A program made the translations under genes and the position numbers. Positions 21,180-26,769 of a DNA stretch of 64,000 nt are shown in pieces. Origin of the DNA: Planctomycetota bacterium (GTDB lineage: Bacteria > Planctomycetota > UBA8742 > UBA2392); contig JAMQHL010000006.1 of the NCBI GenBank assembly GCA_025993795.1, positions 17,397 to 81,396 of the forward strand, read 5' to 3'. Each line of letters opens with the position of its first letter. The stretch's first letter is position 1. The notes under the pieces were generated by a model, which made no database searches, was not told the DNA's origin, and worked only from the letters and a program-made list of their open reading frames with translations.

Positions 21180-22130
21180 ATGCCGCGAGTTCTTGTACTG
21201 CTGTTGATTCTTGCGGCGCCACTGGCGGCGCAGGACACCGAGAGCTTAAGCGGTTCCGTGCCCGGTGATCGACGCCTGACGCTGCTGTATGAAATCGACT
21301 TCGGCCCCGGCAGCACAAGCTGGACGCTGGCTTGCGGCCTTACCACCAACGCCGTTGGCGGCTTGATTGTGCGGCTGATCGACCTCGATGGCCTCGCATC
21401 CAGCGCGGTACCGAACCCGACTTCCGTGGACGAGGCAGTCGTGCTCGGCGCGGGCACAGCCAATGCTGCCCTCAGTGGCAACTACAGCGGCGTACGCGAG
21501 TTTGCAGTTGAGATCGAAACCGCGCAGGGCAGTGCCGCGTCGGACTATTCTGGCAGCCTTACGAGCAATGCCGGACAGATCGAATTCGTGATGCAGGACC
21601 AGATCATTCTTGGGGCCGGCGGCTTGAAGACGGCGGTTAAGCGATTCGCATTCTGGGACGGCACAGTGCCCGCAGGGTCCATCGTGCCGGTTGGCCTTGA
21701 GCTTGATTTCGGCCCGTCGCCACGGACCGTATTTCTGCGCTTCGAGGGTGTGGGCACAAACATGGAGCGCATTGAGCTGTTTGACACCACCGGCGGCTCG
21801 GCATTGTCGCTGGCGACGTTCACCAACCCGACTGGCGGAGACGTCACCGCCGTGCCGCTGACACACAGCGGCAAGGTCTACATTCGCGTGAACTGCAAAG
21901 CGTTCGCGGGCCAGAACGGCAGCGCGGCGTGGGCCATCAACGCGCCCAGCGGCATCAGCGTGCGGCGCGTCGGCAGCAGCGACAACCAGGGCGGCACCAA
22001 GACTGAATGCAGCACCGCGCCGGCACAATCACCGGCGTGGGCGCTGGCACTGCTGTTTGCCGTTGCGGTAGTGTCGCTGCGTCTTGCTGGCACGAAACGA
22101 AGCCGGCCCGTCAAGGTCAACGCGAGTTAG
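21180..22130 (+). CDS. Secreted beta-rich protein with a Cys-containing C-terminal sorting signal
   Basis: Signal peptide MPRVLVLLLILAAPLAA; two internally similar halves (EIDFGP / ELDFGP); C-terminus ECSTAPAQSPAWALALLFAVAVVSLRLAGTKR. Confidence 0.75.
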   Translation: MPRVLVLLLILAAPLAAQDTESLSGSVPGDRRLTLLYEIDFGPGSTSWTLACGLTTNAVGGLIVRLIDLDGLASSAVPNPTSVDEAVVLGAGTANAALSGNYSGVREFAVEIETAQGSAASDYSGSLTSNAGQIEFVMQDQIILGAGGLKTAVKRFAFWDGTVPAGSIVPVGLELDFGPSPRTVFLRFEGVGTNMERIELFDTTGGSALSLATFTNPTGGDVTAVPLTHSGKVYIRVNCKAFAGQNGSAAWAINAPSGISVRRVGSSDNQGGTKTECSTAPAQSPAWALALLFAVAVVSLRLAGTKRSRPVKVNAS

Positions 22131-23320
22131 TACTTGGCGCTGGTGGGGTCTACTTCGTCGCTCCAGCGCAGCATGCCGCCGATCATATTTTTGACTTTGT
22201 GGAAGCCCTGCTCTTTCAGAAAGCGCACGACCTGACCAGATCGCTGGCCGCTGCGTCAGTAGAACACCAGCTCTGCGTCTTTCTTGCTCTCGAGTTCCTG
22301 CCAGCGCTGCCCGAACTCGGGCAGCGGAATCCACGCGTCGTAGGGCAGCTTGCAGATGTCCAGCTCATTGGCGTTGCGCACGTCCACCAGGTACGGCTTG
22401 TCGCCCGCATCCATGCGCGCCTTGAGCTGCGCGGGCGTGATTTCGTCGGCATTCACGGCTGCATTCTCCTGTGCCTGGCGCGCCTTGGCGGCTTCTTCGT
22501 CGTTGGGCACACCGCAGAACTGGTGGTAGTCGATCAGCTCATGGATCGTGCGGTTCTTGCCACAGATCGGGCATTCCGGGTCCTGGCGGATTTTCAGTTC
22601 GCGAAACTTCATGCCAAGCGCGTCAAACACCATCAGGCGGCCTTTCAGCGGCTCACCGATTCCCGTCAGCACCTTGATTGTTTCCAGCGCCTGGATGCAG
22701 CCGACAATCCCCGGCAGCACGCCCAGCACGCCGCCCTCCGCACAGCTTGGCACCATGCCCGGCGGCGGCGGATCAGGGTACAGGCAGCGGTAGCACGGCC
22801 CGCCCGGCAATCCGAACACCGTTGCCTGGCCGTCAAAGCGGAAGATGCTGGCGTAGCTGTTGGGCTTGCCCTCAAGCACACAGGCATCGTTGACTAGATA
22901 GCGCGTCGGAAAGTTATCGGTGCCGTCGGCGACCACGTCGTAGTCGCGCACAATCTGGCGCGCGTTGGCGCTGCTGAGCGCGACCTCATGGATCACGACA
23001 TCCACGTTCGGGTTCAGGTCTTTGATACGGTTCTTTGCGCTGACCACCTTGCGAACACCGACGGTGCTTTGCCCGTGGATAATCTGGCGTTGCAGGTTTG
23101 AAACCTCCACAACGTCGAAGTCCACAATGCCGATGCGGCCGACGCCGGCCGCCGCAAGATACATCGCCAGCGGCGAGCCCAGCCCGCCGGCACCCACGCA
23201 CAGTACGCTGGAGCGTTTGAGTTTCTCCTGCCCGGCTTTGCCGAATTCGGGCAGGATAAGGTGGCGCGCATAGCGCTGAAGTTCTTCGTTGCTCAAAAGC
23301 GGTGCTGCGGTCGCAGTCAT
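22127..23320 (-). CDS. moeB: MoeB/MoeZ-type adenylyltransferase-sulfurtransferase fusion with TGA (putative Sec) at the rhodanese active site, 397 aa
   Basis: RYARHL, GAGGLGS, SNLQRQ, DGTDNF, CYRC and CPIC motifs. The rhodanese domain continues past TGA (22258-22256) as RSGQRSGQVVRFLKEQGFHKVKNMIGGMLRWSDEVDPTSAKY-TAA, the typical MoeZ C-terminus. Confidence 0.92.
22227..22244 (-). promoter_or_regulatory. Putative SECIS hairpin of moeB
   Basis: TGA, an 11-nt spacer, then GCGATCT-GGTC-AGGTCGT (7 bp including G-U pairs). Same spacing and GGUC loop as the E. coli fdhF SECIS. Confidence 0.7.
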
Positions 23321-23811
23321 TGCGAAGTCCCCAAACATCCACGGCCCGTGGAGGCGCAATGGTAGCGCCCGCCGCAGTCCATTCAATCGGCCGACCGGCC
23401 AATGCCGGGTCGGCGTGCCGCGTGCGCAAATGCGCAAACGGGCCATCGGGGGGCCATCGGGTATGAAGTACCGGATGCAGTTGCCGGCGTTGAATTCCGG
23501 CGTTCTTTGTGCTGATGCGCCCGGCCGCAACTGTCAGGCATCTGCCCGGTGCAACAGCGTTGCCCCATCTTGGTTGATCTCAGCCAACTGTCCTTTGGCC
23601 CCATCTACTGCGATGGCGCTCGATGACTTCAGTGCTTGGATGGCGGAGGATGCTCTCAAGTACACGTTGAGCGGCCTTTGCCCTTCGATACTTGTTTGCG
23701 CGCTCGGTTAAGTTCTGTGCGTCGGTCGGCCAGCGTTGTTTCCGTGAATCAACGCAGCTTAGCAGCCTCGAAGGCAGTGCAAACGGGCGCGTTGGTCGCT
23801 AGATTGCCCGG

Positions 23812-24645
23812 ATGCCCAGCAAAGCAGAAAAGAACCCGGCGACCGGCTGGCGTGAGCGCATGCACGAAGTGATCTTCGAGGCCGACACGACCGCAGGCAA
23901 AGTCTTTGATGTCGCACTGCTGGTGCTGATTCTGGGCAGCATTCTCGCGGTGATGCTTGAGAGCGTTCCCGAACTGGTAGCCGACCCCCGCTGGCGGCTG
24001 TGGCTGCGCGTCACGGAATGGACGCTGACGGGCCTGTTCGCGATTGAATACATCCTGCGCCTGCTGTGCGTGCGAAAGCCACTGCGCTACGCGGCCAGCT
24101 TCTTTGGTGTGATTGACCTGCTGGCGATTCTTCCTGCGCCGATCTCTTTGCTGTTCCCTGGCAGCCAGTCTTTTGCCGTCATCCGGTCGTTCCGTCTTTT
24201 GCGCGCCTTCCGCGTGTTCAAGCTGGCCCACTTCCTGACCGAGGCAAAGCAGCTTCGCAAGGCGCTGATTGCGGGCTGGCCCAAAATTGCGGTGTTCCTG
24301 ATGACGGTGCTGGTGTTGATCGTCGTTGTCGGTACCGCGATGTACGTGATTGAAGGCCCGGAGGCCGGCTTCACCTCGATTCCGCTAAGCATGTACTGGG
24401 CGATCGTCACGGTAACGACGGTCGGCTACGGCGACATTGCGCCACAGACCTCGCTGGGCAAGGCCGTCGCCGCGATGATGATGATCTGCGGCTACGCGCT
24501 GATCGTTGTTCCGACCGGCGTCATCGGCGCGGAGTTGAGCAAAGGAATGAAGCAACCCGTCAGCACGCAGGCCTGCACCAGTTGCGGGGCTGGTGGCCAC
24601 GACTCAGACGCGAAGTTCTGCCGCGCCTGCGGCGAGAAGCTATAG
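23812..24645 (+). CDS. Voltage-gated-type potassium channel with a C-terminal zinc ribbon
   Basis: S4 segment RSFRLLRAFRVFKL; selectivity filter TTVGYGD; CTSC...CRACG. Confidence 0.92.
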   Translation: MPSKAEKNPATGWRERMHEVIFEADTTAGKVFDVALLVLILGSILAVMLESVPELVADPRWRLWLRVTEWTLTGLFAIEYILRLLCVRKPLRYAASFFGVIDLLAILPAPISLLFPGSQSFAVIRSFRLLRAFRVFKLAHFLTEAKQLRKALIAGWPKIAVFLMTVLVLIVVVGTAMYVIEGPEAGFTSIPLSMYWAIVTVTTVGYGDIAPQTSLGKAVAAMMMICGYALIVVPTGVIGAELSKGMKQPVSTQACTSCGAGGHDSDAKFCRACGEKL

Positions 24646-24798
24646 CCCGCGCGACCACTCCGAGCGCAGTGGGTCTCACCGCGCAGGGCGCCCGGCTACG
24701 CTGAAAGCTGCATTCGGCTGGCCCGCACGCGGGTGGCGTGGTAGACTTGCCCTTGCGTAGGGACACGGCCTTCCTGAACTCGTCGTCGCGAGGAAGCA

Positions 24799-26769
24799 AT
24801 GTACAAGCTTTATGGCGTCAGTGTTGCCGTGCTCTCGCTACTGCTTGCCGGCTGTGATTTCTCCGGCGGCAGCGTCGGTGCCGGCTGACCGTCCCTGTTC
24901 TCTACGACGGACGTCGTCGTTGCCGCCGGCATGACCGAGCTCGACCCTGACCCCGTGGACACCCTGTCGGGCAGCGTGAACCTGTCGCGTTTCGGCGCGA
25001 CGGCGTTCACGCGTGTGTATGAGCTGGAAACTCCTGCAGCGACTGACTTCTCGTTTACTGTGATCGCCCGCGGGCTTGAGAACATGGGGCCGACGCGACT
25101 GTCACTGGGACACGTTGCCGATGGCGGCGTCGCCCCGACAATCGGCGTCGATAGCCTTGCCGCCGCTGGCCTGTTGCTGGATGGTTCGGGCCTTTCGAAC
25201 GAGGGCCCGGTACTGGATGCGACGGGCGACGGATTCTGCCGCATCACGTTGCGCGGACAGATCAGCGCCGACCAAGTGCTGCTTGTCCGCGTGCCGCGCG
25301 CCGGCGCCACCGACCTGATCGGCATTCGCATCCGCATCGGCAACAGCAGCGTGATCAACCTGCCAAACCAGGCGGCGCTTCCGTCGCGGCCGGGCTTGAC
25401 CTCTACCACGATCTACTCAAGCCAGTCCTATCACTTTGGTCTTCCGGCGATTGCCGTTTCCGGCGACCGCTACAGCGTGGTCACGTACGATGGCGACCCC
25501 GGGGTTCAAGGCTACGGCGAGCGCCGGCGCCGCTGGTTGCAGATGGACGCTCAAACCGGCACCGTCACCGGCGGCACGGCAAGCAGCGTGGCGCGCGACA
25601 CCGGCAACTGGCGAGACCAGGAGATCGCGGCGCCGGGCAACGTGCTGGCAGTGGTCTACACCGGCAACAACGAGGTGCGGGCCGACATCAGCCTTGACCG
25701 CGGCGCGACTTTTGCCATCCAGCGCAAGCTCAACACCGGCGTCGCCCACGGCATGCGCCTGGTGCAGATTGCCATCTCGGGCGACTACCGCATCGCATGC
25801 GTGTTCTGGGGCGCAGCCAAGACCCAGTGGGGCACAAAACTGATGCTGGTTGAAGCCACACCCACCGCCTTTGACGCCACCAACACACCCGCGGGTTACG
25901 ACTGGGCGGCCTCGGAACTCGTGCACGGAACCGGCTTTGATGTCGTTCCGCTGATCATGCAGGCCGAGTACAGCACCGGCGGCGATCTGGTGATCGGCTA
26001 TGGCTATTCATTCTGGTCGGGCGCCGGTTCGGTCGTCACGTTGACTTCGCGGTACCGCTGCGCGATGCGGCTGTGGGGCCAGACGGCGTTCAGTGACACG
26101 CAGGTGGATACGGTAAGCGGCAGTATGCCCAACGACCCGCATATCGCGCTGCTGGGCAGCGGCGCAAGCATGGAAATCTTCTACACGTGGGACAAGGACG
26201 ACGGCGTTCACCTCGCCCACAGCACCGACGCGGGCCAGACATTCACCACGGTTCACTCGGTATCCAACCCCGGAAGTCTGATGCCCAGCGTGCATGCCCG
26301 AATCGTCGGCACGGACAAGCGCGTGGACATGCTGTACCTGTCGCCAACGCCGTGGGGCCTTGAGCTGCACAACGCGCGCTGGCTCAACTTCACCCCTGCT
26401 ACTGCGCCGGTCGCATATGCCGTCACCACGGCAACGGCAACGCCCGGCGCCCCCGCGCCTGACCCGTCTCTCCCCGGCGGATCATGGATTACCATGACCG
26501 CATGGTTCGGCTACGACGCCGTGGTCAAGGGCGACCAGGTGGCGGTGGTCATCCATGAAGTGACCGTGGACAGCTATGAGTACTATCGGCAGCGCGGTAT
26601 GTTCACGTGCGCAGGCATCGCCCGTGCGGGCGGCGGAAGCGGCGGGTCCGGTGGGGGTGGTTCGTACACGCCACCACCGCCGGCGATACTGCTGCCCGGT
26701 ATGGGCCAGCCTGTGCCCGCGCCTGACCCGACTCACCGCAGCCAGTTGCGGATTGTGGTGCTTGATTGA
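24799..26769 (+). CDS. Lipoprotein (probable beta-propeller/BNR-like) with an in-frame TGA at codon 30
   Basis: GAGGA RBS; ATG 24799 gives MYKLYGVSVAVLSLLLAGC (lipobox) DFSGGSVGAG-TGA(24886)-PSLFSTTDVVVAAG, in frame with the 612-aa ORF. Asp-box-like motifs SLDRGATF and STDAGQTF. Confidence 0.7.
24904..24917 (+). promoter_or_regulatory. Putative SECIS-like hairpin after the lipoprotein TGA
   Basis: ACGAC-GGAC-GTCGT, a perfect 5-bp stem; the loop begins 21 nt after the TGA. Confidence 0.45.

Follow-up and report, generated by a model that had tools for sequence, protein, structure and literature searches.

Introduction

Bacterial selenoproteins have been grouped into about 111 families in BSepDB (PMC13326102), and a 2026 review includes MoeB among the known families (PMC13188914). 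In the genes that depend on SelB and a selenocysteine insertion sequence (SECIS), for which E. coli fdhF is the model case, an in-frame UGA is followed by a hairpin that lies within the coding sequence and whose loop starts with a G about 20 nt further on. The model of the bacterial SECIS has a stem of 4-16 bp and a loop of 3-9 nt with a G in the first two loop positions, lies 16-37 nt past the UGA and has a minimum free energy of at most -7.5 kcal/mol (PMC13188914). For lipoproteins with selenocysteine (Sec) encoded by TGA, the only paper that we found is that of Haft & Gwadz on the SAO system, in which at least ten independent candidate examples with TGA are used as a criterion (bioRxiv 10.1101/2022.07.06.499078). 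Here, we analysed a gene for a predicted lipoprotein with an in-frame TGA at codon 30, which is located at positions 24799-26769 of a 64,000-nt stretch of DNA, referred to as the window, from a Planctomycetota bacterium (GCA_025993795.1, contig JAMQHL010000006.1, positions 17,397 to 81,396).

The lipoprotein gene is laid out like the SelB/SECIS genes, with an in-frame UGA followed by a candidate hairpin in the coding sequence; moreover, the window's genome encodes SelA, SelB, SelD and tRNA-Sec, and database entries give the gene in a wrongly truncated form. It differs from these genes in that the putative Sec lies outside a redox motif or a known enzyme active site, in that none of 103 homologues has Cys at this position, and in that only three members are known. 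A first-pass annotation of the window, made from the sequence alone, had proposed either a new selenoprotein or a selenium-dependent switch between a short lipopeptide and the full-length protein. We consider it fairly probable that SelB and tRNA-Sec insert Sec at UGA30, aided by the hairpin that encodes T-T-D-V-V. In total, support for the lipoprotein as a candidate is good, but it is not an established selenoprotein, given that Cys homologues are lacking and that fewer than ten examples are available.

Results

A lipoprotein signal, a TGA and a 612-aa ORF share one frame

The ATG at 24799, the lipoprotein signal up to Cys19, the TGA at 24886-24888 and a 612-aa open reading frame (ORF; 24931-26769) are in one shared frame and, together with the GAGGA upstream of the ATG, are as the first-pass annotation had described them. 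The read-through product is a 656-residue lipoprotein precursor. Its signal, MYKLYGVSVAVLSLLLAG-C19, ends with the Cys codon at 24853-24855, and Cys19 is the predicted lipidated residue; lipoboxes were called by eye as matches to the lipobox consensus. The 612-aa ORF by itself has no signal peptide, as had been noted, because the start of this ORF falls within the conserved domain. Public protein collections hold the lipoprotein only in shortened form, i.e. as proteins of 612, 605 and 491 aa in three species. Two Asp-box-like motifs, SLDRGATF (298-305) and STDAGQTF (475-482), and a C-terminal Cys in a Gly-rich context (MFTCAG), all of which had been pointed out previously, are present. The G+C content around the locus (62-66%) is the same as that of the surroundings, and a scan of 24550-25000 for sigma-70 promoters and terminators was empty.

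The TGA is conserved in two related species

The read-through protein was used for six-frame searches of 61 genomes, including that of the window, followed by the complete set of 23 genomes from the taxonomic family. Homologues were detected in 22 of the 61 genomes and, at E <= 1e-150, in 18 of the 23 family genomes; three of the 19 strong homologue loci in these 23 genomes have a TGA at the homologous codon. The two top matches, in G018 (64% identity; locus L003) and G008 (63%; locus L004), which are Planctomycetota species both of a genus other than the window's, each contain exactly one TGA within the match. The three copies read ...LLAGC-DFSGGSVGAG-U-PSLF-STTDVV in the window, ...LMSGC-TFDTPTPQR-U-TIQF-TTTDVV in G018 and ...LISGC-EYGSYNYH-U-ENKF-TTTDVV in G008. 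Thus, the tether residues around the TGA are wholly different among the three species; the TGA and the block downstream of it are invariant.

All three genes have a signal with a basic n-region, a hydrophobic core and a lipobox Cys (LLAG-C19 for the window, LMSG-C and LISG-C for its relatives); in each of them, the upstream ATG is the sole in-frame start after the preceding stop. In the two relatives, a Shine-Dalgarno-like motif is present at the same distance (GGGAGA and GGAGGA). The frame is intact on both sides of the TGA in all three clade members, and the genes extend over about 1970 nt without a further stop or frameshift, although the two relatives diverge from the window's protein by 36-37%. 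Moreover, codons for the same amino acid differ pairwise among the three genes in 49-54% of cases. A TGG or TGC would give a fully expressed protein, yet the TGA is kept in three lineages with about half of their synonymous sites changed, which argues that the TGA itself is under selection.

The locus is present in roughly 10 studies. Contigs from runs of independent studies, X7 (24634-25084) and X14 (24694-24975), have no differences from the window, the TGA included. A contig from an RNA library, X11, starts at 24766, 33 nt before the ATG, crosses the ATG as well as the TGA and reaches beyond 25400; DNA may occur in RNA libraries, and contigs do not define the 5' end. From these data, an error or a fresh nonsense mutation at 24886 appears to be excluded or very unlikely.

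In a separate observation, run X8 (sludge) gave two contigs that flank the TGA, one ending at 24885 and the next starting at 24901; three other runs are continuous. At a depth of 4-5, this hole may be a gap or a local variant and is not readable as a variant.

The codons of the candidate hairpin are conserved

A palindrome at 24904-24920 follows the TGA, as the first-pass annotation had stated. Its register in the window differs from the one proposed: the favoured form is ACGACG / GACGU / CGUCGU with 6 bp and -6.9 to -7.4 kcal/mol, and ACGAC-GGAC-GUCGU with 5 bp is weaker (-4.6 to -5.1 kcal/mol). The GGAC loop is favoured in the two relatives, in which GACGAC / GGAC / GUCGUC forms 6 bp at -8.6 and -9.0 kcal/mol. 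The window's sequence has TCT for the upstream ACG, yet its downstream GTT permits the GACGU form. The loop, the first base of which is G, starts 21 nt past the TGA in the window's register and 20 nt in the GGAC register. The ribosome covers the first 12-15 nt past the UGA; with these nucleotides left out of the fold, the pair probability in the relatives was 0.8-0.9. The geometry of the bacterial SECIS model is found in all three species, and the energies in the relatives are within its limit.

We compared the hairpin with those of other genes of the same genome that have an in-frame TGA. The perfect-stem core of moeB has 7 bp and a GGUC loop 18 nt past its TGA (-6.5 kcal/mol), and that of a molybdopterin oxidoreductase gene has 7 bp at 23 nt (-7.0 kcal/mol); no perfect stem of at least 5 bp was found in selD. 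Thus, the lipoprotein hairpin is comparable to these two cores, and the earlier comparison with the GGNC loop of moeB was apt.

The 15 nt coding for T-T-D-V-V are identical in the three TGA-bearing genes and represent the longest run of identical codons in the gene. Among the conserved columns, 2 of 62 five-column windows are all identical. Elsewhere in the three genes, 115 of 355 conserved degenerate columns are identical, with per-residue rates of 4/28 for Thr, 11/27 for Asp and 10/29 for Val. From these rates, the chance that all five hairpin codons are identical is P 1e-3, or 2e-4 with the motif excluded from the rates. This codon conservation supports that the hairpin codons are under synonymous constraint and that the hairpin is functional.

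At 14 TGA-less loci, the corresponding sequences are of the T-[TS]-[DE]-V-T type with varied codons. The column of V40, which is the source of the 3' arm, contains Thr or Ser in 12 of these loci and Ala in two distant ones for which the register is doubtful. Thus, in comparison with these 14 loci, a second Val as the source of the 3' arm is seen only in the TGA clade. RNAalifold on the three sequences gave 1 compensatory pair, with two rows offset by a few bases. Taken alone, the hairpin appears to be weak evidence, and it is the conservation that lends it weight.

A scan of the genome for TGA followed by a GGNC tetraloop returned 229 of 102,330 TGAs, and 64 after filtering for an open frame. 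It did recover moeB and the lipoprotein gene; however, it missed selD and the molybdopterin oxidoreductase gene and returned mostly open-frame noise of GC-rich DNA, and was rejected as unusable as a SECIS signature.

The window's genome uses selenocysteine in other genes

The window's genome (G000) is a metagenome-assembled genome that is 85% complete. It encodes SelA, SelB (above the curated cut-off) and SelD, and its tRNA-Sec (C43:118807-118899) adjoins selA (C43:119676-120764). tRNA-Sec and SelB above the cut-off were detected in all 15 family relatives scored; for the two TGA-bearing relatives, SelA and tRNA-Sec were found in G018, and SelA, SelB and tRNA-Sec in G008. ARAGORN identified 53 tRNAs in G000, in which the UCA anticodon is present in tRNA-SeC alone and tRNA-Trp has CCA. 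A reassigned genetic code was ruled out by this CCA anticodon and by the observation that the three TGA-bearing genes all end in TGA.

Three other genes of this genome have an in-frame TGA. selD contains one in the conserved context SHGAG-U-GCKL (C70:24866-25786, - strand; locus L029), and the molybdopterin oxidoreductase gene contains one in the likewise conserved context SCAAT-U-HFPT (C74:76882-78150, + strand; locus L031). In the moeB gene of the window, reading through the TGA enters the rhodanese active-site loop (ELVFY-U-RSGQRSGQ) and continues for 64 codons to a TAA. This gene belongs to the MoeB/rhodanese selenoproteins, a known family, and annotation would truncate it. We conclude that G000 demonstrably uses Sec in at least three other genes, i.e. 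selD, the molybdopterin oxidoreductase gene and moeB.

Cys604 is confined to the TGA-bearing clade

A family alignment was built from the three read-through proteins and 103 further members (E <= 1e-30 in a search of 5.8 billion proteins), i.e. 106 in total. Cys is present in the lipobox column in 98 of the 106, and the remaining 8 have gaps as they are truncated proteins. Opposite U30, the 103 others have a gap (27), Gly (18), Asn (11), Thr (10), Ala (9), Trp (7), Gln (5) or other residues. By contrast, the column of Cys604 (MFTCAG, FLCP) contains Cys in all three TGA-bearing proteins and in none of the 103 others. An exhaustive profile-free scan of 1.84 billion representatives identified 103 family proteins and no more clade members. 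The named sources of the family are nearly all Planctomycetota, and most entries are nameless.

In a FastTree phylogeny of 97 sequences, the three TGA-bearing proteins form one clade with a support of 1.0 and a stem of 0.27 substitutions/site. The sister group (support 0.76) comprises 8 sequences; at the codon aligned with the TGA, five of them encode Trp. The TGA possibly originated from TGG.

Two other Cys positions stood out. Cys421 (YRCAMRLWG) is present in 98 of the 106 proteins with no conserved partner Cys and may be functional. In addition, sixteen distant members have a subfamily-specific Cys in the column of the window's F602, two columns before 604, without a new partner Cys.

Several relatives have two family copies. 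In G007, the copies are adjacent (C22:166114-167922 and C22:168210-170075), and in G017 they are 4.5 kb apart (C85:46890-48722 and C85:53213-55165); G008:C1:2949626-2951464 is also among the loci of such relatives. Neither the window's genome nor G018 yielded a family copy other than the TGA-type gene. The occurrence of this gene is patchy, with one of six genomes of the window's genus and two of eight genomes of genus g4. The neighbours in the window (an ion channel gene, dnaK and moeB) are missing from the 1.5-kb flanks at every other homologue locus, and the two TGA-bearing loci of the relatives (L003 and L004) have in common only an upstream ABC-type ATPase. Together, the patchy occurrence and a neighbourhood that is unconserved between genera suggest transfer or paralogue sorting. 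In one further homologue, L020 (G016:C1:2552954-2554896), the frame shifts near residue 132 and Trp is aligned with the TGA; this locus is a pseudogene or contains an assembly error.

The lipoprotein is predicted to contain a beta-sandwich and a beta-propeller

AlphaFold2 on the 97-sequence alignment gave an all-beta model with a mean predicted local distance difference test (pLDDT) score of 89.1 and a predicted template modelling score of 0.88; the pLDDT is below 50 only at residues 18-30 and 604-626. The predicted domains are a beta-sandwich (about 36-190) and a seven-bladed beta-propeller (about 195-656). The last strand (648-655) has a pLDDT of 97-98, lies within the range aligned by Foldseek and probably closes the propeller ring. 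In this model, the disordered tether ends with Sec30, which is six residues ahead of the first strand, and Cys604 is at the start of a low-confidence Gly-rich loop (604-626) that runs to the closing strand. Both residues lie in low-confidence parts, which limits the support for the proposed pairing.

The best Foldseek matches were two-domain GH33 sialidases (E 1e-10, TM score 0.28-0.41, 8-10% identity). No Pfam family matched the ORF at E <= 0.01, GH33 sialidase and BNR-repeat profiles included, and no PDB chain was found by profile search at E <= 1. The likeness to GH33 sialidases therefore appears to be at the level of the predicted fold only, and this fold suggests carbohydrate binding or cleavage as a function of the family.

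Table 1. Positions in the window of the features of the lipoprotein gene and of the nearby moeB gene
Feature	Positions	Strand	Remarks
Shine-Dalgarno-like GAGGA	24790-24794	+	4 nt upstream of the ATG
ATG and signal peptide of the lipoprotein, 19 codons, lipobox L-A-G-C	24799-24855	+	
Start of the mature N-terminal tether, DFSGGSVGAG	24856-24885	+	Length and composition vary across the family
In-frame TGA, codon 30, proposed Sec codon	24886-24888	+	
Candidate SECIS-core hairpin, encodes T36-T37-D38-V39-V40	24904-24920	+	
Post-TGA protein body, 626 codons	24889-26766	+	Predicted beta-sandwich and seven-bladed beta-propeller
ATG (Met45), gene-caller start of the 612-aa ORF	24931-24933	+	Not the real start; Ser in both TGA-bearing relatives
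Cys604 codon, in MFTCAG	26608-26610	+	Confined to the TGA-bearing clade
Ordinary TGA stop of the lipoprotein gene	26767-26769	+	
ThiF/MoeB-rhodanese gene with in-frame TGA	22064-23530; TGA 22256-22258	-	2.6 kb from the lipoprotein gene

Probable selenocysteine insertion and its alternatives

The proposal of a new selenoprotein gained support from the conserved TGA, the Sec machinery, the hairpin codons and the clade-specific Cys604; it is weakened by the lack of Cys homologues and by a hairpin that is weak on its own. The comparison of homologues at codon 30, which the first-pass annotation had suggested as a way to refute its proposal, gave a divided answer in that the TGA is kept in two relatives, but the others have Gly, Trp, Asn or Thr and never Cys.

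A number of observations weigh against the decoding of UGA30 as Sec. First, Cys is aligned with U30 in none of the 103 other family proteins and in none of the 14 aligned loci, no CxxU-type motif is present at the TGA site, and this site lies within the variable tether with a pLDDT below 50. Second, the window's hairpin at -7.4 kcal/mol is marginally outside the limit of -7.5 kcal/mol. An equally good hairpin is found behind 9-11% of 6000 random TGAs of G000 at 16-37 nt and behind 2.4-3% at 18-23 nt, and a 5-6 bp stem is also present near the site in 4 of the 14 TGA-less homologues. In the full-length local fold of the window's sequence, a structure that involves the UGA itself wins and the GGAC register has a probability of 0.001; similarly, the z-scores of whole-region RNA folds are unremarkable (-0.8 to +0.45), and Rfam gave only chance matches in 24700-25100 (E 0.3-5) and no family. 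Third, in an ungapped DNA alignment, the TGG of the sister group is opposite the TGA, compatible with a simple TGG-to-TGA change, and the TGA, the hairpin and Cys604 are features of one clade and therefore represent one evolutionary origin and not three. Finally, the three TGA-bearing examples are far below the ten of the criterion of Haft & Gwadz (bioRxiv 10.1101/2022.07.06.499078). A contig scan with one genome per species gave no further members of the TGA clade beyond the two relatives; among metagenome contigs (JGI), a peptide scan gave no relative and the exact DNA pattern of the hairpin and the following codons had 0 matches; and in the search of 5.8 billion proteins and the scan of the 1.84 billion representatives, which was made with HMMER, no match other than the three exceeded 56% identity.

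Some of these observations would also be accounted for by a leaky stop, at which the UGA is occasionally read by a near-cognate tRNA, most likely that for Trp, giving a low and possibly regulated level of the full-length protein without selenium. As the sister group has Trp (TGG), the insertion of Trp at the stop would bring back the ancestral residue, and the absence of Cys homologues as well as a statistically unexceptional hairpin fit this explanation; a downstream structure might promote such read-through too. However, the TGA has not changed at its third base in three lineages in which about half of the synonymous sites have changed, and the genome contains a cognate UGA decoder, tRNA-Sec, which serves at least three other genes. 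Moreover, the base right after the TGA differs among the three species (C, A and G), and hence there is no conserved leaky context. Finally, a leaky stop leaves the clade-specific Cys604 without a role. We consider a leaky stop to be unlikely.

True termination at the TGA would yield only a pre-lipopeptide of 29-31 residues, and the downstream domain would be silent or would be started internally (24931) and be cytoplasmic. This is how gene callers annotate the three genes (612, 605 and 491 aa), and the window has an ATG 15 codons past the TGA. However, both relatives have Ser at this codon. In these two, the first in-frame starts are located 23 and 59 codons past the TGA, within strands of the predicted fold, and would cut conserved strands. 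Residues 34-44, between the TGA and the ATG at 24931, are conserved at the protein level across the family, and the first strand (36-43) precedes any start codon. Moreover, the full-length family members are all lipoproteins, with a signal fused to the same domain in a single ORF at all 14 other aligned loci, and a cytoplasmic version would be unprecedented. Finally, the frame across the TGA is maintained in three species. A conserved internal start at 24931, which the first-pass annotation had named as a result that would speak against it, thus appears to be excluded or very unlikely, and true termination as a whole strikes us as quite improbable.

A decaying pseudogene or a sequencing or assembly error at 24886, for which one base change from TGG or TGC would suffice in genomes that are metagenome-assembled and, in the case of the window, 85% complete, is effectively refuted, as the TGA is present in three separately assembled genomes and in contigs X7 and X14, no second lesion has accumulated in any of the three genes despite the divergence of 36-37%, the truly broken homologue in G016 with its frameshift near residue 132 looks otherwise, and a synonymous divergence of about 50% excludes a single mis-assembled template.

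Discussion

The decoding of UGA30 as Sec suggests the following mechanism. The gene at 24799-26769 would be translated into one 656-residue lipoprotein precursor, in which the UGA at codon 30 would be read by tRNA-Sec together with SelB. The hairpin at 24904-24920 would aid this decoding, presumably by being recognized by SelB. Export and lipidation at Cys19 would then place Sec eleven residues from the lipid anchor, on a flexible tether that precedes the beta-sandwich and the seven-bladed beta-propeller. Here, Sec30 and the clade-specific Cys604 may act together, as a selenenylsulfide staple or as a redox or metal site, and the family-wide Cys421 is possibly also part of this interaction. Sec insertion competes with termination. 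Failed insertion would result in a 29-residue precursor, i.e. an 11-residue lipopeptide, and the output of full-length protein would follow the selenium supply. Thus, of the selenium switch that had been proposed as an alternative to a new selenoprotein, the 11-residue lipopeptide would be retained as an automatic by-product of failed insertion; the switch would be a corollary of Sec insertion and not a separate mechanism.

A more specific scenario is that Sec arose de novo from a non-Cys codon, probably TGG for Trp, or a Gly codon, with a new hairpin made from the T-T-D-V codons and a new Cys604, and forms a reversible selenenylsulfide staple between the lipid-anchored tether and the loop ahead of the closing strand of the propeller. 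We regard this scenario as tentative and, on balance, doubtful. If true, it would represent an extracytoplasmic Sec with a structural or redox-switch function and without a Cys-based precursor, and it would tie the surface display of the lipoprotein to the selenium supply.

If Sec insertion at codon 30 is confirmed, an exported, lipid-anchored propeller protein would join the bacterial selenoproteome and would be a rare case of Sec without cysteine-containing relatives. Because there are no Cys relatives, standard searches for Sec/Cys pairs cannot find such a protein, and its confirmation would hint that a class of lineage-specific selenoproteins has stayed hidden. In addition, it would show that a SECIS can be assembled from existing codons through one Thr-to-Val change. 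Moreover, the three entries in the databases (612, 605 and 491 aa) would be wrongly annotated as proteins without a signal. Because these organisms are members of bioreactor and sludge communities, and because RNA libraries contain the transcript, confirmation by proteomics is feasible.

The main texts of the 2026 review (PMC13188914) and of BSepDB (PMC13326102), their supplementary tables aside, do not mention the lipoprotein family, which is possibly listed in those tables. In total, the mechanism would be the ordinary bacterial one, and the lipoprotein is a probable selenoprotein of a family previously unlisted in these main texts.

Among described systems, SaoB and SaoX of the SAO system are similar in that they are exported or lipoprotein selenoproteins with database entries split at the TGA and with Sec close to conserved Cys residues (bioRxiv 10.1101/2022.07.06.499078). 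They differ in having CU/CC motifs, dozens of members, homologues with Cys for Sec, a conserved neighbourhood and the fold of periplasmic binding proteins; by contrast, the lipoprotein would have an isolated Sec on the tether at the N-terminus of a propeller protein, and the window and its two relatives have no conserved neighbourhood. With the MoeB/ThiF-rhodanese selenoprotein, the lipoprotein shares the genome, the machinery and a hairpin of similar size, which in moeB has its GGNC tetraloop 18 nt past the UGA. Unlike in the lipoprotein, the Sec of MoeB takes the place of the catalytic Cys in the rhodanese loop (Y-U-RSGQRS), which is the textbook situation. With respect to the predicted fold, the nearest systems are carbohydrate-active seven-bladed propellers, i.e. 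glycoside hydrolases of the BT3686 type (5muk, 5mum), the Fusarium L-Rha-alpha-1,4-GlcA lyase (7esk), ulvan lyase (5uas) and CylK (7roo). Finally, fmdB of Planctomycetes, in which Sec is aligned with Gly and not with Cys (PMC4807772), provides a precedent for a Sec such as the one proposed here.

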